Shown: positions 4,998-28,870 of the stretch, in pieces
Position numbering within the stretch: the stretch's first letter is position 1
Layout of the letters: each line of letters opens with the position of its first letter
Source: Amphiscolops sp. MND2022
Taxonomy: Eukaryota
DNA length: 64,000 nucleotides
NCBI GenBank assembly: GCA_964187785.1
Contig: OZ076409.1
Location: 32,738,001-32,802,000 of the forward strand
Reading direction: 5' to 3'
Made by a program: the position numbers and the translations under genes
The notes under the pieces: generated by a model
The model's input: the letters and a program-made list of their open reading frames with translations, nothing else
What the model was told of the DNA's origin: nothing
Databases searched by the model: none

Positions 4998-5430
4998 AAG
5001 CAACGCCCGGTGTTTGTGAATTTTTTCACGACTTGGTCGAACATGAACACTACTTTTCACTATCGGGTTAAAATAGCAACGCCCGGTGCTTGAATTCTAT
5101 AACGGCTTAGTCGAACATAAACACTACTACTTTTTACTACCTGGTTAAAATAGCAACGCCCGGTGATTGAATTCTATAACGACTTAGTCGAACATAAACA
5201 CTACTACTTTTTACTACCTGGTTAAAATAGCAACGCCCGGTGTTTGAATTCTATAACGACTCAGTCGAACATAAACACTACTACTTATCACTACCTGGTT
5301 AAAATAGCAACGCCCGGTGTTTGAATTTTATGGTGACTTGGTCGAACATAAACACTACTAGTTTGTGTTTTAAAATAGCAACGCCCGGTGTTTGAGCTTC
5401 ATTACCACTTGGTCGAACTTAAACATTATT
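4998..5430 (+). repeat. Tandem array, ~77-bp unit x6, core AGCAACGCCCGGTG
   Basis: Core at about 4999, 5075, 5152, 5229, 5306, 5377. Confidence 0.9.
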
Positions 5431-6560
5431 TTTCATTCCCTGTACACGAAAGTTATTTTTCAACGTTATAAATGGCTCTTTGCTGCAAAACATCCGCTCT
5501 AATGCTCATTGTTGACCCGTGATAATCCTATTTTCCAAAGAAAAAACCAAAAAACGTTCAAAAGGGCCTAATTAGAAGTCAACTTGGGCTCCGCGACAGT
5601 ACCAAAAACGAACAGAAAACGCGATTTTATATGCAAGAACAATATGTTTGAAATATAAATAGAACGTTTTTCAAAATGCACTTGGTGTGGCCTTACCCTG
5701 TACTTTACTAAGCATCGATGGGACTTTCTAACGCAGTCGTGTTTGTTTTCAATCACCAAGTAATTTACTGATTGCTCTCTCCTAATTGCCAGCTTGTATG
5801 CAAAGCTCTCAACTTGGTTCATTCACCACCCAACACCCCATGGGGATGGCAGGGTTTATTGACGCTTCGCTTATTATTGTGTAAAAAATAATTAGGACGT
5901 TTTCGAAAATACACTCGGTGGGACCTGAAACTAGTTTACTAAGCATTGATGGGACTTCAACCGCAATCTTGTTTGTTTCTATTCGCCAAGTAAATAAGTG
6001 GTTGTCCCCCTCTTGATTAAATTCAAATCAACAGCTTGTATGGCAAGTTCTCAACTTGGTTCATTCACCACCCAACACCTGACAGGCGGATAACTATACT
6101 CTATCTTAATTTTTAGCACTTTTTTCAATCGATAAACTATTGGGAATCAATTAGTGGGACATAATTTGTGGGAATTGAAAAATTACTAGAGCGTGGTCAT
6201 GTGTCAAAAGTATGGAAGTAAGGGACCATGTGTTCAATCCTCCTCAAGGGGCCGCTACCTGTCAGTTGAAAGTTATTCTTTTAAATTTTAAGGCGAAGAA
6301 AATTTGCGTTTGAAGAACATAGTTTGAACAAAATTTGTATTTGAATCTCAAACTGTCAAAATGAAATTAGTTTCCAATATGAACGTTTAAGGTGCTAAGT
6401 TTAAGTCTTTTACATTCGAACACTGTCACTGATTTCTCAAAACATTTCTGACTGTCATTTTGACTGTTTTTTGGTAGCAACTAAATCTGGGTTTCAATTA
6501 CTTGAGAATTCTGGGAAACATTACAGAAGATTGTTCCACAATTTGAAAAATTAAACTGAA

Positions 6561-6954
6561 CTGGAAGAATAACACGAGTTGCCAGGAAGATGCAATGTGG
6601 TCTGCCCTCGTCGTCATGAACCTTTTTCATTCGACAGTTGGCGGCAACTGATTTGTCCTTGTCGTTGATAAACCTCGCCAAGCCAGAGTTCGTCTCATCG
6701 GAAGTGTCAATGAACACTGTGTCTTTTCCCTCCTGAACTTCCATCACGTAGTCAAAGTTGGCGACTTGAGTTGCTCTCCTCGGCCCCCAATAACTCAGGA
6801 GAAACTCTTGCGCTTCAAATTGCTTTTTCACGAAAAGCCCTCTTCCAGTCGTTCCATTGGCGAATTTGACGGTCTGGACAATGACACCCTCCGGATCAGA
6901 ATAGAGGAAGTCTTTCCACGATTCAGTTTTTCGCGCAGCACTACGAGTAGACAT
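6561..6954 (-). CDS. SET-domain lysine methyltransferase exon (SET8/KMT5A-like), first coding exon
   Basis: GRGLFVKKQF...FLLSYWG...FIDTSDETNSGLARFIND...NCRMKKV...PHCIFLATRVILP follows the SET8 motif order. The terminal GEELxYDYG is absent here but present at 2957-2931. An acceptor (ctcttcag) lies 6 nt before the ATG, and an Inr-like TCAGT lies near 7086. Confidence 0.85.
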
Positions 6955-7380
6955 GGTTTTCTGAAGAGCAAGAAAGGTAGGGTTTTGTCACACAGAGCAG
7001 TTCAACCAAAATTTAACATCAATAAAGCCAATGAAATATGAACTCTACATTATAATAAATAAGTAAACCTTTTAGTGTTCAACTGAAACCGTTCGATTAT
7101 GTTTTAGAATTTAGGAAGAATGAAAAAATGTGCTCAATGACAGTGTTGCTACTAGGAGAAAATTCAATCGAGAAAATCTAATACTTTAGTATTAGTGAGC
7201 CAAAAAAAACATTAGTGAGCCAAAATACTGTGATTCATTGTTTTAGCGAGAAAAAAAGAACAAAATTTTGAACCAATGTTGTCAGTTTTGAAAGCAAAGA
7301 GTTCTCAAGAAATCAATGTCAGCTTCGAATTGAAGAAAAGCCAAAGTTTTCATTGGTCTGGTCACGCTCCCATTTTCTGT

Positions 7381-10300
7381 TCAATTTTGTCGGACCCAAG
7401 ATTCTATTTCGTCCCAGTGGAAGTCCCAAGTGGATTCGCAGTACATGTAGAGGAAAATCTCCCAGGGGCTCTCGAAGGGCTCTTTTCCTTTGGGGTGTCT
7501 ACGTTGGTCAGCCTTGATGATAGCCAGCATCTTCCTCAGCTCAACTTTACTGACAGTGCTCTCTGAACGATGACGATATGACCACTCTCTGTAGAGGAAT
7601 ATGACAACCAAGGCTTCAAAGTGAGGAAATGCAAAGGAGGGTTGGAAACCTTGTTCGAGTTCCTTCTCGAAGGCCAGGGCGCTCCGATACATGTGCTTCT
7701 CCATAATGAAGTTACAGCCAAGCGCCACGCTCTCTTCCGCAGTGAACACAAAATGGATCCATTGACTGGGTAAGAACAGACAATCGCCTTTTTCTAGAAC
7801 TATCTGATGCGTTGTCACGTCCCGGTGAAAGCCGAAGAAGAATGAACTGAAACAGAGAGCATGTTGAAGAAGCAACTATTACCCCGGAATTGGTCATAGG
7901 GATCTAAAATTCACTACCGTTCGTTCATCGCGCACATAGTTGTCATATATAAAAATCGGTGGTAGATTAATACCATCGATCAATAGCAACGCTCGGTGCT
8001 GGAAAAAAAAGTGACAATTGTTGCGACCTAAATTTGAGATAAAAAAGGAACGCCCGGTGCTGGAAAAAAAGTAATTATTGCGGCTTCATATTTAAGATGA
8101 AGAAGCAACGCCGTGATGGAAAACGAGAGTGTTTTTAGGTTTCGAACGAAAAAGCAATCGATCATTGATGATTCTCCAACGTTTTAAAAATTGAAGAAAA
8201 AACCTAAAAATTACTTTTGAATTTGTACCTATTTTTCAGAACATTTATGACGCAAGCAAAGCTCCTGATCATGTGCCTTTGAATAAAGTCTCACTTACTT
8301 TCTGTTACCGCTCGCAAGCCATTCCTCAAAAAGCTTTTGATTTTCCTCGGTTGGCTCCACAACAAAGAAGTGTTTCTGGCCCTTTGCCAAAATGTAGAAA
8401 ACGGATGTGCCCGTGAAGTCCTGATGCCAGTTAGTTTGCGCTCCAGCTTCTGACATCAGCAGGTAGTCACTAATTCCTGATGTGAAATCAAATGCCAACT
8501 GGTTTTTGGGGCTCATAGAATTCTTCATGCAATGGCCAAAAGAAATGTCCGTCACTATATTGGGCAAACAAAACCGGTGGACCATCCCGCTCTTTGAATC
8601 CGCGTTGAAGTCAATCACATTCATCGGATGATATTCAGGCTCAAGGCTGCGGTCTTCATTGTGCTCAAGAAACTCCTCCAGAGTGAATTCATCTTCATTT
8701 TCTTGAATCGAAGAGAAACAGACATTAATTTTGACCTCCCCTGGAATTCCCTCTGTTACACAACGAAAAGACGTCAAGCTTTCAGCAGGAGGAGTTGCGA
8801 TACCAGGAAGTTTGTTGGTACACTGGCGTATAACAACAGGTTTTGAAGGGCTCCCGTTGCAAAACTTGGATCTAATATCGTCCACATTCAGCACATCAAA
8901 ATCATTTGTGGCAGGCGGTGCTGTTGCAAACACATGCTGCTGGAATTCCACAGAACCAACTTTGACTCCAATTGGGGGAAGCGAACTGAAGTTTGTTGAG
9001 TAAGAAGCGACGCCCTCCACGGCAGTCTCCAGCTGTTCCTCGACCGCGACTTCGGTTGTCCTCGGAGGTGTTTTTTTTAATCTTCAGCTCTCTCTTGAAC
9101 GTCAACCGCTCCAGCACCCGTAAGAGTTTCTTCGGATGAGACTTCACTTCTCTCTCCAAGCGAAGCAAGGGTTTCCAGTTTAAATTGAAGCGACTCGTCA
9201 CTTGAGAAAGGAGGGCTCTCATCCGCGAGAGATCGTCGTTCTGGGGTCTCTGGAACAAACGGTTCCAAAACTGCGCTTTGGTCGACAAGATTTGCACTTT
9301 CCTCAACTGCACCAGAGGATGTAGTGGGCTTTTGTTCCAAAAACGTGAAAGTTGTCGCCGTTTGGGAAGTACTGGTTGTGGCTGGAGCAAGATGGTACTT
9401 TTTTTTGTGCCGCGTTAGATCAAAACTTCGAGTCGTTGTCGTGCCACAAAATTCACACTCGAAGATACCTTTTTGGCGTTCTGAAACATAAGACTCGTTA
9501 TGCGAAGGAATCAAACGGAAGCCAAAAAGAATGCTACAATATTCGACTTGGTGCCAGTAAAAAAGTTGGTTATAATCGAAGTTTATCGATCAATCTTAGA
9601 TGTAATCTAGTCACTGTTCATGCGGTGCAACACCCGGTGCTGGAGAATGAGACTGTTCCTTAAAAATTGAAGAAAAAGCAACGCCCAGTGCTACAAAAAT
9701 GAGGTTAAAACAAGCGCGACACAATTCAACTAGCCACTGTCATGAATACTATATTGGTATTTATTTATATATTATTCAGGACAGGGCTTGTCAAACTATG
9801 CCAGAGACAGGTTATTCTAACATATCTCCCTGAATTTCGTTTTATGTATTCAATTAAAAAAGAAGTATCGAAACACTTTTTGACGAAAATCACTTTCTGA
9901 GTTTTTCATTGAAATCTTTTTCAGAAACACAGGATCTTTTTCTCAAAATATTGAAGAATAGTCTGTATTTTCAACCACCACTTGCAGGAAAATACAGTCC
10001 AGGTTGAAATTTAAAAACACAGCATAACAATTTCTGACAAAGACTGCATCAGACTTCATTCATTGAACTTCGTTGAATGAAGCGAGAATGTCTTGGTCCC
10101 AAAAATGTTGAACGAAGAATCGAGAAACGATATCAACTTTACTACCAGTAACAATGTTTTTCGAGTGGAGCAGAAATTAAAAAAAACCATCAAACACTCA
10201 ATTAAACTACCAGAATTCCTTCACCTGGATTCATTCAACCAAAACAAATCATTGTAACAAACTTTCAAAATGTTAAAATTTAACATGTCGAGCAGATTAG

Positions 10301-13300
10301 AACTGCACCATGTGTCTTTCAAGGAAACCATGTTGAACAAAACAAGGAAGTGCCGGCTTCGAAAAGGACCCACCCCTTACTTCCTTCAACACAATTTTCC
10401 GCGCAGGAACGGAAAAAAATGTTTAACGCGACGTATTTGATCTGAAAAGCAACTCTCCTGCTATAGTGTAGTGTTCATATAGTCCGAGCATTGCACCCAA
10501 CTAACAGAGCGTCTGAGGTTCGATGTTCATTTGAAATTCTTTATACGTACAAATGGAAAGAGTTCTACGAAGTTGTAACAATTTTATCGAAAAATTTTCT
10601 CTCCAGAACCCACTTGGTTTATTTCTTGGGAAAATCAAGAAAAAATGAAGGAAAAGAGGAAAAAATCTAACTTTTTTAGCAGAAACGATCACGCACTTGC
10701 CGTGGCGTTCATGTTCGACCTATGCTGCTGAGTTTTCAGTTGCTGAAAGGGTGAAAATCATAGTGAAAGGTCGAAAATTCTACAGGAGTTCGACCTTTGC
10801 CCCTAATTGTGATTACCACAGCACACAATGAATCTCGTGATCGCTTATCTCATTTCGTGATTTTATGTCGACAAAAATTGGGCTCGGAACCAATTGACGA
10901 GGTTCAACTTGATTGCATCGCATTTTTTTTGAGAATTCTAGCGTCAATTTGAAACTTGACACCCTAATCATTTCAAACTAGCAACGCAAGGTGCTGGTGA
11001 TTACTACATCTTTACTGTACTTTAATCTGAAAAAGAGCTAGTGAAAAAGCAGCACCCGAAACTTGAAATATGTTTGAAAAGAAAATTTTGATTAGATTTT
11101 ATTGCTGAGAAAATTTCTTTTGAAATAGGCGCCTTTAACACAAAAAGACATTTGGTCTTTTCGGACAAAAAGGTTTGAAAATTAGGGGAAAATAAAATCA
11201 CAGCAACTTTCGTAACGAGTGTTCGTAAAACTTCCGGACCGCGCGTCAGCGTTTTGCCCTTCTTTCATTTTCACATGTTACCAAGGTTTAATTTCAAACA
11301 AATTGATGTTTTTATGTAACCGAACAACCGTTCAGGAAAAGCAACGCCCGGTGCTGAAAAAAACACAATGTCAATGTGATTCCGCCTTAAAATTTATACA
11401 AAAATAGCAACGCCCGGTGCTGGAAAAGATTGGGTTTTTGCGCAGTATTGTTTTCATTTAGAAAAGCGTGGCCCTGTGCTGGAAAACTGGACTGTTATCG
11501 AGCCTTATAGTTTGAACGGAAAATGTAACGCCCGGTGCTAGAAAAACGAGTTTGTTATTGTGCCTGAAGAGTTGAACAAACATAGCAACTCCCGGTGCTG
11601 GAAATAGAAACTTTTCGCGCCTTGTTGTCACGACTCTTCAGACGGACGACTGTCTGGTGATAAGAGTCTGAGTCTACTTAAAAGAAACTTAGTTTATTCA
11701 AAGTATCAACTACGATGTAATTTGCTCTCAGAACCTATTTGTTTTCAATATTGATTTTTCAAGTTTCTATCAGGGAGGTACTAAAGGAAACATGCTCGAC
11801 GTTGATCACCTGGACATTGACCCAAGGGATATAATAGTTTTCATATATCAATCGGGACGACGTCTAGTTGAATCAGGTCAAAAAATTGCATTCGAAAGAG
11901 CAACAACTTTATCCGAACCCTTCGTGACACTTTCGTTTTGTGATTAGAAAAATGAAAAGTCCCGCGTGAAAGAAAGAAAAATGAACTGTTTACACTTGAA
12001 AACGGAAGACAAGAAAACAGATATTGCGATTCTTCTCGAGTATGATAAATAGGTTCTACGAAAGACTTCTGTAAACACATAACGTAACACTTTCTGACGA
12101 AAACTGAATCAGACTTCTTTCATTGAACTTTTTTGAATGAAGCGAGAAGGTCTTGGTCTCAAAAATGTTGAACGAGGAGTCGACAAAGGACTTCAACCAT
12201 TACTACAGGTAACAACCTATTTCGAGTAGAACAGACTCAAAAAATAAACGTAAACGCTTGTTCAAACCACCAGAATTTCTTCATGTGGTTTCATTCATCT
12301 AATGAAAAGTATTGTGACAATTTGATAAAAAGGTCGTTACAATTTCAGACTAAGACTGCACCATGTTCATTTCAGTGGAACTATATTGAAGCACACAAGT
12401 GGGTCTTGGGCTCGAAAATGTTGAAAGCGATGAATCGAGGAATCGTTCCCTCCCTTGCTCTTCCGGTAACAAAACATTCCGACCAGAACGAAACAAACAT
12501 CATTTTACGTTTGGTCTGGTTGACACATTTGGTCTGGTCGCCAATATTCCTGCTATAAGGTAGTGTTCATATATTAAGAGCATTGCGCCCAACCGTAAGA
12601 GCGTCCAAGTTTTTGTTATGTATATGATGTTCTTCACACATACAGAAGGAATGAGTTCTACCAAGTTTAAAAAAACTATCGAAATGTTTTCTATCCAGGA
12701 CTCAGTTAGGATTTTCTCTCGAAAAATTTTGAATAAAAGAAAATGGAGTAAAAACAAAATTTTTTTAAAGCAGAAACGATCATGCAACTGCAATGTCGTT
12801 CATGTTCGACCTGTGCTGCTGGGTTTTCAATTGCTAAGAGGGTGAAAATCATAGTCGAAGGTCGAACACTCTACATTTCATTTTATACAAGTTAATTTAA
12901 TTATTTTAATTTTACAAGCTTTAATTTTAAACAAACTGATGTTTATTATACACTTGGACAGCCAAGCAGAAATGCAACTCCTGGTGCTGGAAAAAAATTG
13001 GAAAAGGTATTCGGCCCCAAAATTTGAACAAAAAGCAACGCCCGGTGCTGGGAAACTAGACTGTTATTGGGCGTTAAACTTTGAACGGAAAGAGCAACTG
13101 TTGATTTTTGAAGTTTCTACAGGAAACACGCAAAACATAGATCACCTGGATATAGGACCCAAGGGATATAATGGTTTTCTTATATCACTCGGGACAACGT
13201 TTGGTTGAATCAGGTCAAAAGATTGTATTTGAAAGGGAAGCAACAATTTTTATCCCAACCTTTTGTGACACTTTCGTTTTGTGATTGGAAAATTGGCTAG

Positions 13301-16300
13301 CAAAAATATATTAAGTATATTGTCCATCTTGATACATGTATTTGAAAAAAAATCAATTTAATCAAAAATTCATTTTCTTTTGACTTGTTCAAAACACTAA
13401 AAATTTTTGTTTTATTCCATCAAGGGGGGTTCGTGTTTGAAATTAAAATACGCGTGAGAATTTCCTAACGCGTATATATATTTTTGTGTTTTAAAAAAAC
13501 AATAAGTTTGATTGAGTATTTCAAACAATAATTTGAAAATAGGTTTTTCGAAAAATCAACTGACAACACATCAATTTCATTTTTTTTCATTGTTTAGTAA
13601 AATCAAGCATTTATTGTTATTTCAGTTTGCGGGGTCAATTTGAATATTTCAAGTTTTAAGGGGACGAGAACTTCCTAAAGCTTCCTAAAACTTCCTATAC
13701 CGAACAATAATTTGAAATTAACTGTATTTCAAAAAACGAACTGAGTTATCTAATCATGAAGTAAAGTTCAACGTTCAAAAAAATCGAAGTTTTAATTTTT
13801 CAATGTTCCTGTTGGGGGGGTTTGATTATAATATTTTGTGAATGTGCATGAATTTACAAATGCGCATAACGTTTTGATTTCTGAAAGTTTAAGTCCGACT
13901 TACAGTATTCCAAGCAATAAACTAATTTCATGAATTTAATTCAAAAGAATTAGTTGTTTCAAACGTAGTTCCAGTTGGGGAGATTTGATCAAACCAATTG
14001 ATAATATTATTTTCTGCATTATATAATTCCCAACCACCTTATAATTCTCAACCACTGAGCGTTGCTATTTTAATGAACAACCAATATGAAAACATTAGCC
14101 GAAAGGATTTTGTCAGGACTACAAAAAACCGAGTTAGTGTCAAGCAGCTCTCAACACTCATTTGCAACTCAGTTATCGGTTCACCTTCAGACACATACAA
14201 TTGCGTATACTGTAACGAGCTTCCCCTAACGAATGATGAACTTGACAGCGTGATTAACCACTACACTAACTCGGTTTGAAGAGAAGCAGTTTTAACTTAA
14301 TCATGCAAGATTACGTACCAAATAGCATATAAAAGAAAATAACGAAACGAAAATAGTCCCATTCAACGAAAAAGCTAAATTAGTTTCATAAAAACATTTA
14401 AAAAAACCGAATACAGTTGAACAATTAGCTCACGAATTTTGTCTCTAATGTTGATACATTTTTAGTGAGTGTTTTGAATTGTGAATGCTTTTGACCACAA
14501 AAACTTTCTCGTAAACAATTTTATTGTTTCCTGAAAAGCATTTCATTTTTTTAATTTGAAACCTTTAGTTTATTTGCTATTATGTTAGTTCGACCTTGTG
14601 CCTGTAAAAAAGTCTCATGTCCTACCAAGTGCGGGTCCGACCTTGTGCTAGTAAAATTACGACCGCATATAGGACATTAACACAAAATGTGTTGTGCAAA
14701 AGCTGATTTCATGCTTTTCTGCTCCTTTCCTAAAAAACTATACACAAGTGTCCAGCGTCACCAGTGATGACTTTACACGAGGGGGTGCCCTCGTTCAGAA
14801 TTTAACCCTGAAAAACAGCAAAGGAAGAAACCCCCTCCTGTTTGAGGTTTTTAGCCATGTTTGGGATCAAAATTTTCAAACTTGCTGTTAGGAATAGTGG
14901 GTTGAAATTTCATTGATTGCCTTGCAAACGTTTTAAGCAGCACTAACATGCCCCCCGTTGAGAAATTTCAAACACCGCCCCTGTGCGTCACGGAAAGGAA
15001 AACAAACTACAATTGGAAACTGAAGACAAGAAATGAGATTACTCTTATTTCAAGAACGATACATAGGTTCTACGAAAGCTTCTGTAATTGAAGACCTTTT
15101 AAAAAAGGTTAATTCCCAAATAGCAAACAACATAAGTCTTGAAAACTAGACTGTTACTGCAACTTAAGATTAGAATAAAAGAACAACGCTCGGTCCTGGA
15201 AATTGAGACTATGACTGTGCCTTAAAATTCGAACAAAAAAGCAACGCCCGGTGCTAACAAACTAGACTGCTACTGCGCTTTAAGGTTCGAAGAAAAAAGC
15301 AACGCCCGGTACTGGAAATTGAGACTATGACTGTGCCTTAAAATTCGAACAAAAAAGCAACGCCCGGTGCTAACAAACTAGACTGCTACTGCGCCTTAAG
15401 ATTCGAAGAAAAAAGCAACACCCGGTACTGGAAATTGAGAATATGACTGTGCCTTGAAATTCGAACAAAAAAGCAACGCCCGGTGCAAACAAACTAGACT
15501 GTTACTGCGCCTTAAGATTCGAAGAAAAAAGCAACACCCGGTACTGGAAATTGAGACTATGACTGTGCCTTGAAATTCGAACAAAAAAGCAACGCCCGGT
15601 GCTAACAAACTAGACTGTTACTGCGCCTTAAGATTCGAAGAAAAAAGCAACGCCCGGTATTGGAAATTGAGACTATGATTGCGCCTTAAGATTCGAAGAA
15701 GAAAGCAACGCCCGGTACTGGAAATTGAGACTATGACTGTGCCTTAAAATTCGAACAAAAAAGCAACGCCCGGTGCTAACAAACTAGACTGTTACTGCGC
15801 CTTAAGATTCGAAGAAAAAAGCAACGCCCGTTTCTGGATATTGAGGCTGACTGCACCTTGAGTTTCGGGAAAAAGCAACGCCCGGTGCTGGGAATTGAGA
15901 CTGACTGCGCCTTGAGATTTGAAAAATACCTGAGCCTAGTAAAACAAGATTAAAATAAAAAATATTTATCAAAATAAAAATTGAAAAAGCAAACAACTTA
16001 CTTGGAGGCGGTGAAGGAAACTCACTGGGTGTAACTCCTTGTTCCACAGCTTCTTTTTGTCGCTTCTGACAAGTCTTTTTAGCAACATGCTGCTGCAATT
16101 TGGTCGTGCTTGCGCAAATTAACCCACATAGTTGGCAAGTGCAGCGGAAAATGCTTTGAGCTTTTCGTGTTCTTTGGCCTTAAAAACAGAATCGTGTGAA
16201 AACCTGAGAACTGATTTGGAAAACACAATCTCATGAGTTTATCAATAAATTGATGATTGATTTTTACGATCGATAAATTTTGATTGATTTTTTATCGATA

Positions 16301-17041
16301 AATTGATGATTGATGAAATAATTTTTGGACAGCCCTGCAAATGAATGATCAAGCATTCCAATTTTCAACAGAGGCTTGGACGCAAACCAAGAACCTTCAA
16401 TTTTATTTAAATCCAGGTACAATTTTTTTTCACAAGCTGTTTTTGACTGTTTTTGGTGGGGGCGGTGAGGGGGATGGTTTGTTCAATAATTTTTGTTTAC
16501 GGTGAATTCCCAGATAACACAAGAGCAAATAACATAAAAATTGAATTAGTTTCAAATAACATGAAAATAAAATTGTTTACGAGAAAGTTTGGATCTTTTG
16601 TTGATCCCCCCATTTAATTCCCCCCAGTTTTTATTACTCTATATTACTCTACCTTTTTTTAACTCTAACATCAACTGAAACTCATCTCTGTTACGGGGGG
16701 GTGGGGTTTCATAATTTTCTCTGTGGGGGAATTAACAGAAAAGATCCGAAAGTTTTAGTGTTCTAAAGCATTCACAATGCAAAAGACATTCGCTGAAAAA
16801 GTATGAGAAATACAGATAAAATTTAGTGAGTCCGATTGTTTAACCGGGTATTTGGATTTTTTTTAAACTAATTTCATTTGTACGTTTAATGGAAAGAAAT
16901 TCGCTTTTATGTTATTTGCTCTTATGTTATTTGGTACAAAATCTTTGTTTACTAACCCAGGCATCTTGATTGATGGCGACTGAACAACCACTTCTGATTG
17001 GCTTGGAATTCCTTCGCGCAGTGAGTGCAGCGTGGAGGCAT
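7381..17041 (-). CDS. Spliced gene: three C2H2/C2HC zinc fingers plus JmjC histone demethylase domain (KDM2/KDM7 type). Exons 17041-16957, 16178-16002, 9480-8299 (1-nt frameshift near 9078), 7846-7381
   Basis: All three introns are GT-AG and phase-compatible (1,1,2). Fingers: CTHC..HQSRC, CQLC..HVAKKTC, CEFC..HKKKYH. JmjC: AQTNWHQDFTGTSVFYILAKGQKHF...FLPSQWIHFVFTAEESVALGCNF, with HxD..H and the 2-oxoglutarate Lys. Confidence 0.85.
10030..12870 (+). repeat. Diverged ~0.8 kb direct repeat (about 10030-10800 and 12090-12870)
   Basis: Shared blocks such as tcagacttc..ttcattgaactt..ttgaatgaagcgagaa and gggtgaaaatcatagt. Confidence 0.75.
11335..11605 (+). repeat. Diverged ~60-bp array x5 with conserved AGCAACGCCCGGTGCTG core
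   Basis: Core at about 11340, 11406, 11465, 11523, 11584; inter-core sequence strongly diverged. Confidence 0.8.
15175..15915 (+). repeat. Tandem array, 58-bp unit x~13, two largely alternating unit types (116-bp dimer), core AGCAACGCCCGGT
   Basis: Spacers gctaacaaactagactg... and actggaaattgagactatg... mostly alternate at 58-bp spacing. Confidence 0.95.
16591..16747. mobile_element. Small MITE with GG termini and 8-bp TSD (Merlin-like)
   Basis: Ends GGATCTTTT...AAAAGATCC; GAAAGTTT on both sides (16583-16590, 16748-16755). Confidence 0.7.
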
Positions 17042-19657
17042 ATCTTGTTCCGAGAATGATTGATGATCAGTTTTTTAGTTTTCAATTTTGAATTTGAAAA
17101 CAAAGTTTTAAATACAATTTTGTACGTCCTTGAGTGCAACCATTATATCGTCGAAAAGAAAATTCAAAACTTTACTTCATTTTTCGAAACAAATGAGAAA
17201 ACTGAAACATTGAAACCAAAAGAAAAATGATCATCACTGATATCGGTGGAAATATTGTGATTTGAATAGGCGAGTAGACGATAGGTATTCAAATTTTGAT
17301 TGAGAGAGCGAACGCAACTGAATGATAAAGAGAATGGATATTGAATGGCGACTGCGCTGGAAGAAGCGATGAGTCACATGAGTCACCGCTTTGAACTCCG
17401 CAGCTCGCTTTGTTAGAATCATAAACAAACATTGCTTGCACGACGCAGCATCGTTCAACTAGTAGAATTTCCACCGCACTCTTTTTTCGTCGACAAAACC
17501 AAGAAAGTTGACTCCCAATAAAAGAGCGGCAGCTCGGAATACAAACTCAGACTCCTTTCATTTCAAACAAAACTTGGTTTCAAAACCCGAACATCGAGTT
17601 GAATAAAGAATGTAAACAGAAAGTAGTTACCGAACTGCGCTGCTCGTGATTTTTTTCTTTTTTTTTCGATTATATCAAAGGAACAGAGATCAAACAGCTT
17701 TAGTGTTTGGGGGGGGGAGAATTTCCCAACAAGGTGTACCTTGGAAATAGATGACATGGTCCGATTTAAGAAATAACTGGTTGGATTTTATGCCTTTTGG
17801 TTTCTATGAGAACAGTTTTCAAAAAGTAAACTGAATAAATGAATCCTAAATTAAATTTTATGAATAATGTAAATCAAAGATATTTTTATTGAGGGGGTGG
17901 GGGGCGTTGTTTGTTTGGTACATGTATTTCAAAAAATCAATCTGATCAATAGTTCATTTTCCTTTTACTTGTTCAAAACAATTTATTTTTCATTTAAAAT
18001 ATTCTCCAGAACTGCAATCCTTTTCAATACAAAAACAAGATATAGAGACCGAATTCTATATTCTTCTCACGTATACCGAACAATAATTTGATATTAACTG
18101 TACTTCAAAAAAACGAACTGAATTAACTTAATAAAGTTCAACGTTCGGTAAAATCGAGGTTTTAAATTTTCATTGTTGTTCCAGTTGGGGGGGGGGGGTT
18201 TGATTATAATTATTAAATAATTAATCAATTTGTGAAAGTGCATGATTTTCCAAATGCGCATAACGTTTTGGTTTTTGAAAGTTAAGTCCGACTTACAGTA
18301 TTCCAAGCAATAAACTAATTTGATGAATTTAATTCAAAGGAACTAGTTGATTGTTTCAAACGTTGTTCCAGTTGGGGAGTATTTGATTAAACCAATTGAT
18401 TTTTTTCCATTATATAATTCCCAACCACCTTATAATTCTGAACCACCGAGCGTTGCTATTTTAAGCCGAGTCAAACAACCAAAATGAAAACATTGGTGAA
18501 TTTCCAAATAACATTGGGAATAAGAATGCCGAAAACATTATCTGTAAGGATTTTGTCGGGGCTATAAAAAACCGAATTAAATAGTGTCAAGCATCTTACA
18601 ACACGCAAATGCAAATACCGGTTCACCTTCAGACACATATAATTGCGTATACTGTAACGAGCTGCCGCTAACAAATGATGAGCTTGACAGCGTGATTAAC
18701 CACTACACTAACTCGGTTGAAAGAGCAGCAATTTTAAGTTAATCAAATAACGCCAAACTCTTGTAGCGAATACTATATAAGAGCAAATTACAAAAACGGA
18801 ATTAGTTCCATTCAACATAGCGAAATTATTTTCATATATTACGAAAAGCCGAATACCCGGTTAAACAATTAAACTCACGTTTTTGTCAGTAATTTTAACA
18901 CATTTTCAGTTAGTCTTTTGGATTTTGAATGCTTTTGACAACTTTCCCAAACAATTTTAATTTCATGTTTGGTGAAGCTCTTTTCATTTTTATTTTTTTA
19001 AAACTAATTTGGTTTTTCATTTGCCATTTTGTTGGTTCGACCTTGTGCTAGTAAAAACAGGTCTCATGTCCTACCAAGTGCGGGTCCGACCTTGTGCGAG
19101 TAAAATTACGACCGCATGTATTAAGTGCAAGTCTTGTGCTATTGAAAAACGGCCTCATGTCCTACCAAGTGCGGATTCACGAAAACTGAGTTTACATTTC
19201 GCTCGATCAACTGACTTGCTTTGTGATTTTAAAAATCGTTGTAGATAACTAGGAATGACAGATGCTATATAGCAAACGAAAATTCCTGAAAATTCAGGTG
19301 GTCAAGATAATTATGAGAATAAATTTTGTTATATAACTGAGAATTCTAGTTTATTACTGCCAGTCAATTTCTATGTTTGTAGCTACAAACAGCAGTAGTT
19401 GACTGGTTGATAACTTGCTTGAGTTATCTCGGTTCCCGAATTTCAAAGCTCTTCGAGACAAAATAACGTGTTTTTCTTACGGTTCTAGTAACCTATTCAC
19501 AATAACACTTGTAGCCTATATTAACACTCAACTTATCTCGTACCAAAACCAAGTATGTGTTCTATAAATTCAATTCAACCAACAGAATGAGAAAAACAAA
19601 TAGTTGAAGCGAGAAAACAAATTCAGAAATAAGAATGTTTTTGAAAATTGAAAGTTT

Positions 19658-20010
19658 TTAAGCTGCTCTTGATAGTGGGTAAATCAGCTGCATGTAGGTC
19701 ACGGCGTCTTCCAGCGCAGGGTCAGTGTTTTCCAAGGCATGGTAGCAAAGAACTTCATAGAGTCTTATAAAACTGTGTGACTCTGGATCAATTCGCACTT
19801 GGCATTTACGGGATTTTGGCTGGGAGGGTGACACTAGACCCGAGTACTTGGAACGGTAACAAATTTTCACCGATTGGTCTGCGTAGGTCCAACGGAGTCT
19901 TGTAATGATTACGTCAACTAATCCGTTGATCTGCATCTCTTTGGGCAGAGTCCATTCGAGGTGCAAATACACTTTTTGGTACCAAAACGTTTGGATGGAA
20001 AGAGTGAATA
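19658..20010 (-). CDS. Unknown protein (probably a last exon), paralogue of 23871-24251
   Basis: KVYLHLEW..ITRLRWTY..IDPESHSFIRLYEVLCYHALENTDPALE aligns with the 23871 ORF; 5' end uncertain. Confidence 0.65.
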
Positions 20011-20894: not shown

Positions 20895-20960
20895 TAAGTA
20901 GATTCGAACCGACATTCTACAGCAGTAAAGTATTCTATTTTACCTCTCGGCCATAGCGCC
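20895..20960 (-). pseudogene. tRNA-like remnant or SINE head
   Basis: Box A-like TGGCCGAGAGG and box B-like GGTTCGAATC at tRNA spacing; no complete cloverleaf. Confidence 0.35.
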
Positions 20961-21034
20961 TTGATATTGGACGGTTCTATTTTAGTCTTATTCCTATTTG
21001 CTCTGTTTAAAGCACTGGTGTTAAACGAAAGACG

Positions 21035-21215
21035 TAAAAAAGCAACGCCTGATGTTTGATCGCACAGCTTATCCAGAACAAAGTGAAAAAGCAACGCCTG
21101 GTGTTTGATCGCACAGCTTATTCAGAACGAAGCAAAATAGCAACGCCTGGTTTTAATCGCACAGCTTGTTCAAAAGGAAGTAAAATAGCAACGCCAGGTG
21201 TTAATCGCACAACTT
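21035..21215 (+). repeat. Tandem array, ~49-bp unit x4, core variant AGCAACGCCTGGTG
   Basis: Core at about 21041, 21090, 21139, 21187. Confidence 0.85.
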
Positions 21216-21230
21216 GTTAAAAAATGAACG

Positions 21231-21679
21231 GGACCATGTCATCTATCCCCCCCAGGTACACTTTGTTAGGAATCCCCCCAGCACGAAAGCACATTTTGTT
21301 CTTGAATAAAAATATTTCACTACTTAGAGAATATTATACGAATGTAAATACTTAGCGGATTGTCTCTACAACTGTTGGACACTTCAGGTAAAAAAACCCT
21401 AATTTTTTGATATCATTGTCCAAAATGGCAAAAATTCACGCTTGGAACGAGATGAAATAGTATAAAAAGGCCCCTATTTCAACGCAAATTTTCTCCGTGA
21501 TGATATCTAATGAGCAACTTTTAACTGACAGTCAATGTAATGGATAGGATTATGTCGACATGAATTGTTTTATTGGATTAATATTCTAACGCAAACGATG
21601 TCGACATAATGGTATTTGAACCTTGTGACTTATTCCCCCCCCCCGCCGCAGTTTGGGGGGGAAACAGATGACATGGTCC
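21231..21679. mobile_element. MITE with GG-initiated TIRs and perfect 8-bp TSD (Merlin-like)
   Basis: GGACCATGTCATCTATCCCCCCC ... GGGGGGGAAACAGATGACATGGTCC; AATGAACG at 21223-21230 and 21680-21687; related lone end near 17745-17762. Confidence 0.9.
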
Positions 21680-22084
21680 AATGAACGATACGAACAAAAA
21701 TTGCAATTAAATCCTTCAAGAAAATACTAGGAGTTTATAATGTTCTTAACGTCATCAATATTCCAGAAAGAATGGTTCACTTTCGAAAAAGTCGCTTTTC
21801 AAGGTTATTGGGCGACAAGTTTTTTATTTTATACCTAAATACTTGAAATTTGTCAGTTTCTCACATTTGATTTAAAAAATAGTTGCAAGTAATTGCAGCT
21901 GAATGCATTCAAATCAATAAACTTTTTAATTGCCTGAATTCAAACAATTAAAACTTGAACCACTTTGATTGCAACGCCCAGTGCAATCAGCGTTGTGCAA
22001 TAAATAATTTATTTGAAAATAATTCAAAGAAATAAAAATACCAATCTTTATTCTAGTTTCGTCTTCTAGTTTTAGAATGAACGT

Positions 22085-22400
22085 ATTAAAATAGCAACGC
22101 CTGGTGCATCGCTCAGAGTTTGATTTAGAATGAACGAATTGGAATGAACGAATAAAACTAGCAACGCCCGGTGCTCGCGCAGTGTATAATTTAGAATGAA
22201 CGATTAAAAATAGCAACGTCCGGTGCTTGCGCAGTGTATAATTTAGAATGAACGATTAAAAATAGCAACGCCCGGTGCTCACGCAGTGTATAATTTAGAA
22301 TGAACGATTAAAAATAGCAACGCCCGGTGCTCACGCAGTGTATAATTTAGAATGAACGAATAAAAATAGCATTGCCCGTTGACTCGCGCAGTGTTTGATT
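22085..22400 (+). repeat. Tandem array, 52-bp unit x~6, core AGCAACGCCCGGTGCT
   Basis: Unit aaatagcaacgcccggtgctcacgcagtgtataatttagaatgaacgattaa. Confidence 0.9.
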
Positions 22401-22781
22401 TACAGTAGTTGACTTAGACGTCAATCAAAACTAATATAATGATAATCCTCAATGTATTTTTGTGAAATACTCTACAGTAGTGATAATCAGGAAGAATAAA
22501 TTCGGGCACTCATTTCCTCAAAACGGCGGGACTTTCTTATGCGAATTCGGTACTCCTATTTCCTAAATCGACACTCGAAAATAAACGAAGAAGCAATGAA
22601 ATTTTTCATTGATATTTAACGAAAACAAAAGGTAATGAAAGTGATCACAAATGTTTCAACACATATTCCAGAAATACGCGTTCGAGTTCGGGTTCTTGGT
22701 TGTTTTACAGATAAATTCAACCAGCGGCATCGTCGGCAATCGTCTTGGTTTTGAGACTATTTGTTTCTCAGCATCATCTCA

Positions 22782-23340
22782 TCAAAGTCGTGCTTGGAAT
22801 GGCTTGACATGAATATTGTTATTGGGCCGCCACAGATCCTCTTGTTCTTCCATGAAATCCGTCACATTCTTGAGCATCTTTTTGTGTCTAAACAGGATGA
22901 ACGGTATACAAAAATTTGCCGGCTACAAAAAGTTCTTAGAATTTTATCTAGTTTACAAAAATGTTTATTTGGAAGTCTTCTGACAAAAATTACAAAGTTA
23001 AGATTGTAAATTTTGACAAAATCAAATTTGCATTTTTTTCTTGATTTTCACAAAGTTGAGATAGTATTTTTGAAAATTTTTTAGTCAATCATATGCCCCA
23101 AGATCTGAGGGTTATCCTGTGTACCAAACACATCATGATATAGATTCTTTCGTAATACAAAAACCAGATTCCAACATAGAAACTCTAAACGATTTAGAAC
23201 AATAATTACCTTATCTTTCCGTCAGGGTAAACCACACTATTGTAATAGCAGAATCCAACTTTCTCGGGGGTTTGTGACTTGATCTCAATGACGGCGAAGT
23301 TTCCATTTTGTAGGATTATTGTCCCTGTCGCTTTCAGCAT
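22782..23340 (-). CDS. Possible small two-exon gene, 78 aa, unknown function (exons 23340-23210 and 22887-22782)
   Basis: ATG; AG|GTAATT donor and ctgtttAG acceptor in matching phase 2. MLKATGTIILQNGNFAVIEIKSQTPEKVGFCYYNSVVYPDGKIRHKKMLKNVTDFMEEQEDLWRPNNNIHVKPFQARL. Confidence 0.4.
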
Positions 23341-23870
23341 TGTTGAATACAGTTCAGTGAAGAATGAAACTGGTTCAGTAAAACTGGTTCAGTGGAGAAA
23401 GATGGTTGTTTCAACTGATTTTGATTGTGAATTGGCGCTGACTGGTTAGTAGGTGAGTCTGAAGTTAGTTAATTAGAAGTGGAATCCAATTGGTTACTGG
23501 AGTATCAAAGGATTCCTTTAGTGTAAGGGACTTTCTTTTGCTGAATACTTTATAGCGAGGCAACACGAATAAACGTCACGCTTGTTACTACAGTTTTAAT
23601 AATTAAGCAGCCTTTAAAATACTTAATTAGGTTACCAACAATCGTTTCGACTTTGCTGTTCCTAATTACTTGATTATCTATACCCGGTTATTTCACCAAA
23701 GTATTTTACTTTGAACTATATCACAACTGAACACCGACTCATTACTCGTGAGTAAGGTTTAAGGTTGAGACGATTGTGCTAGCACGCTTTTGGAAGGGTA
23801 CTGTAGAATTCCAGTTGTTTCTCAGTCTCTTTGAACGCAGTCTGTTTAGTCTAACCTACCAAATCTACTG

Positions 23871-24251
23871 ATGCCTTGCCACAAACTATATTTGAACTTA
23901 CTGTGGGTAGTTCCACAAGAGCTTGAAAACCTCGATATTGAGGTAGTTACCATCACAAAAATATATTGGACCTTCAGAGAAAGTGTCATCAGAGTTTGTT
24001 TCTATGGAATCCAATCTAACCGCTCTCATCCGCTACCCGTGAAAAAGACCCCAACGAAATTCAACATACACCTTCACCCACAGTCACAAAGTTTCAAGGA
24101 CTTGAACGAAGTGCTGGGCTACCATGCTCTGGACAACAAGGATCCACTACTGGAAGAACTGCTGAGCTTTATGTCCAGCATCAAGAAGATTTCTTTGGAA
24201 AAACTCTTTGACTCGTCTTCGGACGAATCATTCTTTGGCATGGAATTCTAA
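23871..24251 (+). CDS. Unknown 126-aa protein, paralogue of 19658-20010
   Basis: Clean ATG ORF; protein-level similarity to the 19.7 kb ORF. Confidence 0.7.
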   Translation: MPCHKLYLNLLWVVPQELENLDIEVVTITKIYWTFRESVIRVCFYGIQSNRSHPLPVKKTPTKFNIHLHPQSQSFKDLNEVLGYHALDNKDPLLEELLSFMSSIKKISLEKLFDSSSDESFFGMEF

Positions 24252-26539
24252 TTGCACGCACACATTGTATTTTTTCAATTCAAGTCGTTTCATTTATATT
24301 TTATTTTCATTTATAAAAAATATTTTATTACTGTAACAGCGATAAGTTTCAGTTGCAGTTAGAGTTATAAAATAAGTAGAGTAATATCGAGTAATAAAAA
24401 CGGGGGAATTAAATGGGGGGGATCAACAAAAGATCCAAACTTTCTCGTTGTGTGTGTATGTCCTACCAATGCTCGTATCTAACTGTTATCCTTGTATACA
24501 AACTGTCCAAGTATTAATTGTTCAAAACAAGGATGACTTTTAAAAAAGTTTTGAAACATGGATATTAGAAACATTGTAATTAGTGATTTGAATTTTTAGA
24601 TTTTCAACATTTTAAAAAAACGTCTTAATTAACACTTGAATGAATAAAAATACTTATTTTTGAGATAACTAAAACTAAGAGCGTTTGTTTCAACGAATCG
24701 TCAGCCAAATAAATTCGAAAAACAAACAAAATTGAGCTAATTTCTAGAAATACCTTTGTCAAGTACATTAAGCTACTGAGTCAAAAGGTCTAAGAGTCCT
24801 TTAAAAAAGCCCTGTCGCCGCGTTTTGGCCTGATTATGGATGGCTACTTTAAATTTTTGTTGATATTCGTTTTTCGCTGAGAATAAAAATAATAATTATA
24901 AAGCAATAGTAATATTCGGATAAAATATTGAACACCCCTGATTGTATGTATTTGGCTAAAACTGTAGCGCAGTATACGAACAAATACTCTCAAAAAAGCC
25001 TGGTTGGAGTAATCATACTGTGCGAGGAAGTGGAGAAGGGCATTGCTCTCAACACTACTGCATTATTTCCACCGTGGATGCGATTGAAACATCAACAATC
25101 ACAGTGAAATCTATTCCATGAACCATGAAGGTGGCTCCTACCGTGATTCGAACCACAATTTAACTATGCAGCTAGTGTGAGATCAATCTTTCGCGCAACC
25201 GACTACTCCAACAAGACCTTGAAGCATTCAGTAGTGTTGCAGTTCATATACCATATTTACTGCGAAGCAACGAATATATGACAACGCGGGAGTCAACAGC
25301 ATTTTGAAATAATTCTTGGTACGCCAGCTTCACGTACCTGCTCGTTGTCAGGTTTGACACGAGCTTAAAATTGTTTGAAGTGCAGTCGAATTTCACTTTC
25401 ATATTCTATACCCTCATTGAGAGGTAAAACTCATTATCGTTGGTCATTTTGAATCTCCGTTCTCCCAAGTTATGAAATTAACCATCCTCCTAGTGAAATG
25501 CAATTTTCGATGAGGGCTCTTCCCGTTAAATGTTAAAAGTCAGGTGCTAAGTGTTAAGTTAAAATGGAGCAAAACCGGTCTGAGCCAATCAAATTTCAGA
25601 AAAATGGATGGACCGGAACGAAGTCCTCACGCAAAATTGAGTTGTGAATTAAAAAGTTCATTTTTCTCTGAAGTTTTCCGTGCTTTCGTTCCGGTCCGCA
25701 TGCTTTCAGCCAATCAGATTGCAGAGAAATCGCAGTACGCTCTTTTTGAAGAGGATAAACAAAAGGATGAACAAGTAAGACAGCATAAGGACGGAAAGAT
25801 GCAAAAGGCTCAAAACAGATCGGTACCACCTAGGTTGTAAAATATTGTATTTCAATACATTTTGCATGAAATTAAACTACTTATATTTATTTTTCAAGAA
25901 AACAAATGATTTAAACTATTGTCGCTTTATTGTGCAGGAGTGCTTGAGAAAACGATTTCAGTTTCACATAACTTCATTCACTGTATTTACTTACAACCCG
26001 GATGCTCGAATTATTGTTCAAAGTCACATAGATAGTCATTATGGAAGTATCTCGCAGTACTGAAAAATCGTTCAGCTGAGTTTGACGTGTTTGATGTAAA
26101 AAATTTGAAACAATAAATTATTGTAATTGGAAAGGCCGAAAAATAAATTATTTGAATATATTTATTGCAATTATTTTCAATTATTTACTTGACACTCTTG
26201 GGTACCACTACATACCTACAATTTTTCAAGCAGTCGTGTAAACCACTGCACCAACAGAACATTCATTTGATTTTAAAGTTTGCTCTTTATTGCCTGAAGT
26301 TTTATGCTTTTTAATAAGAGCAAATTAAGAGCAAATAACATAAAAACAAAATTATTCCCATTTAACATAAAAATGAAATTAGTTTCATATAACATAAAAA
26401 ATAAATCCAAATACCCGGGTAAACAATCGAACTCACGAAAATTTATCTGTAATTCTCATACTTCTTTCAGTGAATCTCTTTTGCATTGTGAATGCTTTAG
26501 AACACTAAAACTTTCGGATCTTTCCTGTTAAATGCTAAT

Positions 26540-26995
26540 AAATAAACTAAATGAAATAGCAACGCCCGGTGCTTAGAACACTGCTATTCAATAATCTAAA
26601 TGAAATAGCAACGCCCGGTGCTTAGAACACTGCTATTAAATAATCTAAATGAAATAGCAACGCCCGGTGCTTAGAACACTGCTGTTAAATAATCTAAATG
26701 AAATAGCAACGCCCGGTGCTTAGAACACTGCTATTAAATAAACTAAATGAAATAGCAACGCTCGGTGCTTAGAACACTGCTATTAAATAATCTAAATGAA
26801 ATAGCAACGCCCGGTGCTTAGAACACTGCTATCGAATAAACTAAATGAAATAGCAACGCCTGGTGCTGAGAACACTGCTATTAAATAATCTAAATGAAAT
26901 AGCAACGCCCGGTGCTTAGAACACTGCTATCGAATAAACTAAATGAAATAGCAACGCCCGGTGCTGAGAACACTACTATTAAATAAACTAAATAA
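26540..26995 (+). repeat. Tandem array, 49-bp unit x9, core AGCAACGCCCGGTGCT
   Basis: Near-identical unit ctaaatgaaatagcaacgcccggtgcttagaacactgctattaaataat. Confidence 0.95.
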
Positions 26996-27075
26996 AAAAA
27001 TGTCGGGCTAAAAAGAAAGTTGTGATAAAAAATCACAACCTTGAAACACTGACACCCATTATCATGTATTTTTAG

Positions 27076-27153
27076 AGAGGCTCTCAGTTAGGGGATCACA
27101 TAGTGTCGCCCATAACAAGACCCACGCCGGGAACGTGGCCTCTGGAGGGTCTC
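27076..27153 (-). ncRNA. HDV-like (CPEB3-type) self-cleaving ribozyme candidate
   Basis: GAGACCC(P1) TCC AGAGGCC(P2) ACG(P3) TTCCCGG(L3) CGT GGGTCTT(P1', G1.U wobble) G [P4] CTGA(J4/2, catalytic C) GAGCCTCT(P2', one bulged A). Confidence 0.8.
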
Positions 27154-28214
27154 AAAATCTAATTTACAAAGTCTACTACGAAAATATGCTAACTACCAGA
27201 GCTTCCGGAATTTTATTTGGGATCAAACATTTCAATTAATTTAAACCAAAATCAATTAATGGACAAATGGAAACTTGCAAATTAACTATCAATTATCTCG
27301 CAATTGTTGAAGCAATAATTTCGGTATTAAGGCTTTCATCCCAAGATAGTCTATTCATCTTCAAAGATTTCGAGTTTCATTGGAAATAAACTTATCTAAA
27401 ACCGTCCATCTAAAGAACTTTTGCATTTAATTAGAGGTCAGAATCATTTTTTCCGTTTTTTCATCAAATTTTCAGTCAATAAACTACCTTTTGACCTCCC
27501 TAAAATCAATTAATTGCACCCTAATAATTGCAAATAAATAGTTGCCAGTTAATAAAACGATGAGATAATCAAAGAAGAATTGAAATGTTTTATGATGAAG
27601 GAAATTATATTCTTGAAAAGTTGATTCTGCTGTACAGTGTATTGGCGATCGAATGAATTCGATGTACGATGAGAGAAATGAAATGCTAATTATGAAGGAA
27701 ATGATGCTGCTGAAAAGATGATTCTGCTGTACAGTGCATTGGCGATCGAATGAATTAGAATGTAAGAATGAAGTACATATAAGAATGTGATTAGAATTTC
27801 GTAATTCTGTTTGCGAACCATGCCGGGACTGAACGAAATTTTGTGACGTCATCGTTAAAACGGTTAATTCTTTTTCGATTCAAAATGGTGATAAATGCAA
27901 GAAACTTTGCTAAAGCTATATAATAGAGTGTGTGCATGCATAAATCTATTGGAAGATCAATAAATTATTGCAAAAAATAATTCCATAGAAAGCTTTTGAC
28001 TTTGAATATTTTATTGGCAGAAAGCAATAAAATAATTTATCATACCATGTAAATAATTTCTCCATTTTGAGACGTTCTGTTTACTGCTATTAAATAAACT
28101 GAAGGAAAGAGCAACGACCGGTGCTGAGAACACTGCTAATAAACAGCGTCCGGTTGATATATATGATGCAAAACTCAAAAATTATATTCATATTAATTGT
28201 GCGGGGGGATCCAC

Positions 28215-28870
28215 ATACTTTTTCCATTCTCAAGCCCTTGAAAAAATGATTGGACTAATTCCAAAAAAATAAACTGAATAAAATTAGTTAGACTTTCAGT
28301 TTATTGTTTTAGGTAATTTCTTTTTCGTTTCATTTTACGTTTTGGCTTGGAGGGGGGGGCTTGGTGTAAGAATAATACTTTATGAATGCATTAAACTGCT
28401 AAAGCATACATATTTCCTCCATTCTCAAGCCTTTCTAAAATTGATTGGACTTATTCCAAAAAGAATAAACTGAATAAAATTAGTTAGACTTCCAGTTTAT
28501 TGTGTTAGGTATTTTTTTCGTTTCATTTTCTTTTTTGGCATGGGGGGGTTCGTGTAAATATAATACTTCAAGAATGCAGTAAACTGCTAAAGCCTACATA
28601 TTTCCTCCATTCTCAAGCCTTTGTAAAATTGATTGGACATATTCCAAAAAGTAAATTAAATAAATTATTGAGAGTTTCATGAGTTTAATTTTATTGTGTT
28701 AGGTAATTTCTTTTTCGTTTCATTTTATTTTTTTTGGCCTCGCGGGGGGGGGGGGTGGTTGTTGTGTTGAATAAATTACTTTATAACTGCATAAAAATTC
28801 GCCAATGCATATACAATTTTTCCATTCTAAAATTTTCTTGAAATTGGTTGAATTTATTCCAAAAAACTAT
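28215..28870 (+). repeat. Degenerate ~190-bp tandem repeat x3-4
   Basis: tccattctcaagcc...gattggac..attccaaaaa at about 28223, 28418, 28606, 28821. Confidence 0.8.

Follow-up and report, generated by a model that had tools for sequence, protein, structure and literature searches.

A 14 bp core motif shared by tandem arrays of dissimilar units in a multi-copy, putatively mobile segment of the Amphiscolops sp. genome

A window of 64 000 nt from Amphiscolops sp. MND2022 (contig OZ076409.1, positions 32,738,001 to 32,802,000 of the forward strand) was analysed; all coordinates given here are window positions. In its left part the 14-mer AGCAACGCCCGGTG recurs as the common core of several tandem arrays whose units otherwise differ, and these arrays lie in the non-coding DNA of a multi-copy segment that also carries JmjC and SET-domain genes. 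In the reading that we favour, and that we consider on balance probable, the core is a protein-binding site which has been amplified in tandem inside a large mobile element and works like the VANC target arrays of VANDAL elements.

Core motif, arrays and spacer classes

Motif copies were counted by pattern matching with mismatch limits, using shuffled sequences as the null. With at most two mismatches, AGCAACGCCCGGTG was found 52 times in the window (49 copies on the + strand and three on the − strand), compared with 0.16 copies expected from the shuffles; none of 100 shuffles reached this count. 25 copies are exact, all of them on the + strand. The copies range from 3454 to 28123. Raising the limit to three mismatches gave 55 matches, all at or before 28110, and none in the repeat-rich flank of 35.8 kb (28200–64000). 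The coding exons of the motif region (5.7 kb) contain none of the 52 cores.

A preliminary description of this DNA had reported arrays of several periods on one core, and this was borne out by the motif counts and by Tandem Repeats Finder, which returned periods of 77 (4999–5425), 58/116 (15143–15923), 49 (21027–21215), 52 (22142–22402) and 49 bp (26533–26997). In the array at 11340–11600 the core spacings are 58–66 bp. The near-total + orientation noted in the same description stands as a count (49 of 52) but carries little weight, the independent lineages being divided seven to two (p = 0.18). Reversed copies expected near 14055 and 18445 were located at 14053 and 18444 and are duplicates of each other (13696–14671 matches 18072–19120); a third lies at 3454.

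Spacer classes were set up after the core and its A-run had been removed from the units. Four classes were obtained: A (77 bp), B (58–66 bp), C/D (49 and 52 bp) and E (49 bp). No pair among the four is significantly alike, and the spacers of C and D are weakly related to each other (p = 0.008, global). The spacers had been described as mostly dissimilar; unrelated classes do exist, but there are four rather than six, as the loci at 7985, 9626, 11340, 12973 and 15182 form a single family (class B) that is homologous over the whole unit. Class B arrays are accompanied by internal duplications of 1–2 kb. Profiles of the spacers alone, trained on the same units, gave no cross-class match and no interior unit lacking a core. 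The isolated copies were said to be intronic, which holds for 7985–8110 (as well as for the array at 4999–5425) and is likely for 9626–9690; no support was found for 12970–13050 or 28110.

Conservation is higher in the core than in the spacers, as had been supposed. Between the five class B loci the core identity is 0.83 (0.40 when shuffled) and the spacer identity 0.60 (0.45 when shuffled), the core exceeding the spacer in 10 of 10 pairs; between classes the values are 0.88 for the core and 0.46 for the spacer (0.43 for shuffled spacers), with the core higher in 25 of 25 comparisons; these conservation figures are inflated by the arrays having been located through the core. A cruder class B comparison using aligned columns alone, which inflates spacer identity and misregisters one deleted core, gave 0.79 for the core versus 0.72 for the spacer (core higher in 8 of 10). 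In the class A array none of the 14 core columns varies over six cores, while 63 spacer columns hold 20 variant alleles. Six isolated cores with unrelated flanks retain CAACG..GTG.

Extended to the 16-mer AGCAACGCCCGGTGCT, the motif is an imperfect palindrome, symmetric at 12 of 16 positions (p = 0.03). No stable hairpin was found at the motif, all six folded regions being no better than shuffles (z from −1.3 to 0.7). The bases directly after the core vary by spacer class and contain no constant CTRR.

A second motif, TCC[GT]ACC[AT][AT]GTGC (motif B), occurs 12 times in the window, where 0.14 matches would be expected. Its matches form small clusters within 3382–29522, and like the 14-mer motif B is absent outside this range. 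A motif-B-like word is also present inside the spacer of the 77 bp class A unit.

Searches outside the window were made with patterns derived from the motif. The array pattern of AGCAACGCCCGGTG had no match in viral contigs. One metagenome locus matched it (L001, 1310–1591, on a GC-rich contig), where the 14-mer falls by chance in a bacterial CRISPR-like repeat array beside cas1/cas2-like genes. A 20-base pattern gave two single matches in viral contigs, both of one sequence of 50% GC, in which the similarity ends with the word itself. The literal 12-mer turned up in the literature, as far as the text available goes, in an unrelated context only.

Multi-copy segment and its genes

SET, JmjC and C2H2 are the only library matches among the window ORFs of the motif region. 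The SET exon matches KMT5A/SETD8 in 14 of 14 solved-structure matches, all weak (E about 4e-6). It is continued across an intron by the exon starting at 2957, in which a tandem array of 57 bp × 41.2 (109–2459; Tandem Repeats Finder) encodes a 19-residue repeat. The JmjC protein is nearest to PHF8, KDM2A and KDM7, and its fold, with predicted HxD...H iron ligands, is of the PHF8/KDM7/KDM2 type. Other copies of the finger–JmjC exon have intact frames of 406 aa; HQD is intact in 99 of the 109 JmjC ORFs that reach this site, and the zinc-finger residues R−1/D+3/R+6 are retained in 26 of 28. As the JmjC frame ends near 7380 and the SET exon opens with ATG, the two are probably separate genes.

Two further genes, at 19658 and 23871, encode proteins that are 35% identical; they point apart and enclose arrays C and D. 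Their family of about 125 residues has 23 relatives at 50% clustering and no match in Pfam, NCBIfam or PHROG. A single-sequence model of the 23871 protein was poor; a model from an alignment (pLDDT 81.7) shows a predicted four-stranded sheet with long helices. It found no clear fold match in the PDB, in a wide PDB search (best Z 6.2, helices only) or in a viral library, and its Atlas matches are all unnamed. This family may serve the element as a DNA-binding or accessory protein.

Copy number was estimated from sequence clusters. A search with the JmjC exon gave 45 clusters with 220 member sequences from 324 candidates, or 196 members once four clusters on short contigs were excluded. Exact look-ups gave cluster sizes of 101 (SET), 15 (23871), 27 + 8 (19658 family), four (the 12939 ORF, which runs across the 12973 pair) and 27 (25604); ORFs beyond the element, at 30656, 44985 and 62009, are single. 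Of the window ORFs looked up in this way, 4 of 7 and 7 of 10 had no entry in the cluster collection, which leaves the stretch from 26 to 30 kb unmapped for copy number. The members listed, the window's own contig excluded, are distributed over at least 129 contigs of 17–855 kb. Among the members listed (15 or fewer per cluster), a contig is shared with a JmjC or SET member by 8 of 21 for 19658, 8 of 17 for 23871 and 6 of 14 for 25604, counts that equate contigs by their size and have no formal null.

In three ORFs of other contigs (P0211–P0213) the translated core at 13034 is retained; the motif is therefore carried along with the segment. The contigs of one sequencing run are collinear with 5298–13293 (roughly 90–95%, depth 2) and have the same layout in a second source; given the low depth and a record filter, the absence of a pile-up on the arrays and the gap at 13306–14299 are uninformative for copy number. 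No RNA run was among the matches listed.

106 JmjC sequences could be compared. On long contigs they form subfamilies of 52, 14 and 12 members, 95–98% alike within each, those of 14 and 12 being 85% and 50% alike to the main group; the three are separate amplification bursts. Many copies, including that in the window, are frameshifted. From this dispersal, the bursts and the decay of copies we infer that the segment is a large mobile element. The multi-copy part covers at least 19 kb and probably more than 29 kb, and the element would extend from beyond the left window edge to between 25.84 and 30.66 kb. The last motif B match, at 29522, suggests a right end near 29.5 kb.

None of 1663 candidates for a longer version of the exon with the 19-residue repeat was confirmed; this search was weak, and it likewise missed the window's own protein. 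The inverted repeat at 25590–25720 has arms of about 15 bp between two CCAAT words and is kept in at least 27 other copies; it is a possible promoter or origin, and the region 25590–25710 folds with z = −3.8. A MITE-like repeat of 200–430 bp with imperfect terminal inverted repeats is present inside the element at 4365–4620, 14307–14590, 16508–16946, 18779–19030 and 26316–26531, one copy lying directly 5′ of the class E array, and once outside it (37346–37415). Feature coordinates are collected in Table 1.

Table 1. Motif copies, arrays and genes of the element, in window coordinates
Feature	Position	Strand	Basis
Large exon, open at window edge: SET-domain end (GEELRYDYG), then about 41 copies of a 19-residue A/K/P/G-rich repeat	3..2957	−	985 aa stop-free frame
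Motif B cluster, leftmost	3382..3424	−	Motif match
Single reversed core	3454..3467	−	Motif match
Single degenerate core	4825..4838	+	Motif match
Class A array, 77 bp unit, 6 cores, in SET-gene intron	4999..5425	+	Tandem Repeats Finder, spacer comparison
SETD8/KMT5A-like SET exon, donor degenerate in this copy	6561..6960	−	Pfam SET; structure matches
Last JmjC exon, with distal His (WIH)	7381..7850	−	KDM7/PHF8 matches, E 1e-7 to 2e-5
Class B degenerate array, 3 cores, in JmjC intron	7985..8125	+	Motif and spacer comparison; donor and acceptor seen
C2H2 zinc finger and JmjC exon, HQD motif, frameshift near 9070 in this copy	8298..9481	−	Library and structure matches
Class B pair, 5′ of finger-exon acceptor	9626..9690	+	Motif and spacer comparison
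Single degenerate core	10980..10993	+	Motif match
Class B array, 58–66 bp units, 5 cores	11340..11620	+	Motif and spacer comparison
Class B pair, found with core on other contigs	12973..13095	+	ORFs P0211–P0213 keep core's translation
Reversed core in duplicated 1 kb module (other copy 18072–19120)	14053..14066	−	Motif match and self-comparison
Motif B cluster	14589..14648	+	Motif match
Class B array, 58 bp units alternating in 116 bp higher-order repeat, 13 cores	15143..15926	+	Tandem Repeats Finder, spacers
Reversed core, class-A-like flanks	18444..18457	−	Motif match and flank comparison
Motif B cluster	19036..19172	+	Motif match
Small gene, family without library match, multi-copy	19658..19990	−	Clusters of 27 + 8 members
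Class C array, 49 bp unit, 4 cores, between two divergent small genes	21027..21222	+	Tandem Repeats Finder, spacers
Single degenerate core	21970..21983	+	Motif match
Class D array, 52 bp unit, 6 cores, spacer weakly class-C-related	22075..22402	+	Tandem Repeats Finder, spacers
126 aa gene, same family as 19658 gene, multi-copy	23871..24251	+	Cluster of 15 members
Multi-copy stretch, inverted repeat and two CCAAT words	25604..25840	+	Cluster of 27; rightmost part demonstrated multi-copy
Class E array, 49 bp unit, 9 cores	26533..26997	+	Tandem Repeats Finder, spacers
Single class E unit with last core of window	28083..28143	+	Self-comparison, spacer profile
Rightmost motif B cluster, putative right end of element	29373..29522		Motif match; first single-copy ORF at 30656–31303

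Neighbouring features of the window

Tandem arrays without the motif are present at 28223–28865 (188 bp), which may lie in the right end of the element, and at 32559–33008 (104 bp). A tandem duplication of 2.9 kb (37797–43662, 99.8%) is either recent or an assembly artefact and holds a fragment that by eye resembles the end of a piggyBac transposase. Broken ORFs at 44300–53000 resemble, also by eye, a Maverick/Polinton relic (polymerase, capsid, integrase), a likeness that no library search bore out. A multi-exon gene at 54126–56755 encodes a cationic amino-acid transporter (SLC7-type) closest to mammalian CAT1 and is apparently an ordinary host gene. Together with the spliceosomal introns and the enzyme families of the element, it points to a eukaryotic and probably animal source. 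The stretch 58950–59452 is duplicated at 60584–61086. ORF fragments without a family at 61728–63873 (− strand), single in the cluster look-up, are possibly another decayed element.

Possible function of the arrays

In the available text of PMC5735166, VANC target motifs are described as accumulating by tandem repeats in the introns and intergenic DNA of VANDAL elements, where they are dense and share a single orientation. On the basis of that text, the element described here is similar in that a short motif is dense in the non-coding DNA of a multi-gene element and missing from its exons, in that the motif is, by count of copies, mostly in one orientation, has built up by tandem repetition and accompanies separately amplified subfamilies, and in that an element protein bears tandem peptide repeats. 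The VANC motif is given there as 8–9 bp, whereas that described here is 14–16 bp and quasi-palindromic; no Mutator transposase and no VANC domain (DUF1985/DUF287) was found among the window ORFs; the host is probably an animal, and the predicted cargo enzymes are a histone demethylase and a histone methyltransferase. Going by the part inside the window, the element is VANDAL/VANC-like in layout and not a member of that group. The preliminary description had already drawn the VANC analogy, which is strengthened by the setting of the arrays, all of them in non-coding stretches of a large segment that is present in many copies and encodes chromatin enzymes.

In the mechanism that we propose, the 14-mer (16 bp as AGCAACGCCCGGTGCT) would be a cis-acting protein-binding site of a dispersed element. 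Single sites in introns and intergenic DNA would have been multiplied repeatedly by local tandem duplication along with their own flanks, and such duplication would give both one core in unrelated units and isolated single copies. A protein-binding site copied in this way would also explain the absence of cores from exons. The closely packed sites may serve as a landing platform that holds the chromatin of the element open or activates its genes, probably assisted by the JmjC demethylase and the SET methyltransferase of the element. The core contains TAGCAAC, an RFX half-site; the binder could therefore be either a host factor or a VANC-like protein encoded by the element, and we rate the two about equally. 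A more far-reaching version, which we regard as possible and rather doubtful, is that VANC-like self-protection arose independently in a family of very large animal transposons, with a protein of the element reading the arrays and recruiting the element's own histone enzymes; the reader would then be the finger–JmjC protein or the 126-residue family, and every subfamily would have its own motif.

Several observations weigh against the binding-site reading. None of the 123 window ORFs scanned with Pfam matched a transposase or recombinase, and neither termini nor a target duplication was seen (the window holds one end at most and the left end is outside it). The window copy is broken (frameshift, degenerate splice donor), and its SET domain reads NDK at the NH cofactor motif of SETD8. 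The finger residues R−1/D+3/R+6 presumably read GCG by the textbook finger code; GCG is present on the lower strand of the core, but it also occurs in 62% of shuffled cores, so this finger-to-core link carries nothing. The limits stated above for the co-occurrence counts and for the spacer profiles apply here as well. The CpGs kept in the core had been taken as a sign of selection, an argument that fails: the surrounding DNA has a CpG observed/expected ratio (o/e) of 0.95 in any case, and CpG positions absorb 15 of the 37 core substitution events, not below their share. On the supporting side, the o/e of 0.95 inside the element (arrays masked) compares with 0.80 outside (p = 0.002); the weaker depletion of the element's non-array DNA fits past low methylation but also youth or foreign origin. 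Within arrays the advantage of the core is weak, with 30 alleles in 98 core columns versus 124 in 305 spacer columns (p = 0.09), and the multiple alignment behind this test overstated the difference; core diversity is below spacer diversity in five of seven arrays. As this value is marginal and the arrays were found through the core, selection on the core, which had been proposed together with the VANC analogy, is not proven.

These last points are shared with an alternative that we consider unlikely and nevertheless serious, namely a neutral core-sharing minisatellite family in a repeated segment, whose core is conserved mutationally and without selected binding. The core would seed slippage, gene conversion or unequal exchange, and new arrays would start there and homogenise. 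Minisatellite families of the Jeffreys type are arrays of differing period on one common core, as here. The marginal within-array conservation, the origin of class B arrays with the 1–2 kb internal duplications, the decay of many cores and the detection based on the core all suit this explanation. It accounts less well for the isolated copies that retain the core among unrelated flanks, for class A with no change over six cores despite diverging spacers, and for a word that is missing from flanks and exons; motif B is equally confined, and, unlike in Jeffreys-type families, every locus here falls within a single element of about 25 kb, the flanks being free of them.

That the motif is a replication origin or a recombinase site of an excised circle, whether similar to a baculovirus homologous region (hr) or served by a tyrosine recombinase encoded past the left edge, seems to us improbable. 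The dispersed arrays, the imperfectly palindromic core and its A-rich flanks would agree with it, and several separate arrays of imperfect-palindrome units are also a feature of hr regions in the available text of PMC4535591. According to that text hr units are conserved throughout (64 bp, with a palindrome of 24 bp). The palindrome here is shorter than hr cores and also shorter than recombinase sites. No baculovirus gene was found here, nor any viral, replication or recombinase gene in the window; none of 176 candidate JmjC relatives in viral contigs was confirmed by alignment, and with no array match in those contigs and no PHROG match for the small protein, a large DNA virus context finds no support. 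The six folds without a stable hairpin also count against this alternative, and some fifty internal sites suit excision badly. An origin or recombination function had been offered in the preliminary description, and nothing observed here favours it.

A recombinase past the left edge is suggested by SETD8-like genes elsewhere. In the tabulated part of PMC10368294, three of 24 Hydractinia genes of this type end in a tyrosine recombinase domain (DNA_BRE_C at the C-terminus), at least about 750 residues after SET, which predicts such a domain to the left of the window here. Many dispersed SETD8/KMT5A-like genes with an N-terminal SETD8-type domain and a long following region are common to Hydractinia, Hydra, sea urchin and the present element, although the text available from that article does not describe them with large elements, JmjC genes or motif arrays. 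Cryptons, in the text available from PMC3212892, have no long terminal repeats and direct repeats of 4–6 bp at most. No Crypton-type tyrosine recombinase was found inside the window, off whose left edge the SET gene runs.

An origin of the motif as the terminus of an abundant MITE or SINE, or as a Helitron 3′ hairpin, left in many copies, is very improbable. GCAACGC does resemble the loops of Helitron 3′ hairpins. The motif has no left arm, no stable hairpin and no constant CTRR after the core; it is found with four unrelated spacer classes, without tRNA or Rfam matches, and without a copy in the 35.8 kb flank. A Helitron 3′ terminus was rejected, as all six motif regions fold like shuffles and the bases after the core are class-specific, and a MITE or SINE end was rejected, as no shared body was found next to the motif and there was no tRNA or Rfam match. 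Within the window, the reading as a short-element end is largely refuted.

Other elements resemble this one in part. Giant-virus insertions of Amoebidium carry KDM4-like JmjC genes (10.1101/2024.01.08.574619); in the portion of that preprint available, the JmjC genes bear introns and sit in large repeated elements, a role against host silencing is proposed for them, and no motif arrays are mentioned. The JmjC protein here is instead PHF8/KDM7/KDM2-like with a C2H2 finger, and no giant-virus gene accompanies it. Transposon-encoded regulators with motif clusters are described for plant Spm in the available text of 10.64898/2026.08.24.746577. The literature searched yielded no account of an animal element that unites JmjC and SET genes with motif arrays; Repbase, subscription journals and bioRxiv supplements lay outside this search and may hold one.

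Sequence-specific anti-silencing by motif arrays is already documented in plant transposons. If the arrays here act in that way in an animal element with histone-modifying enzymes of its own, this strategy would extend to animals, and it could account for why SETD8-like genes have expanded in several invertebrates, which is so far unexplained. It would also provide a compact motif-plus-enzyme pair that is directly testable. With more than 100 copies in at least three subfamilies, selection on the motif and its turnover between subfamilies can be measured from the existing assembly.

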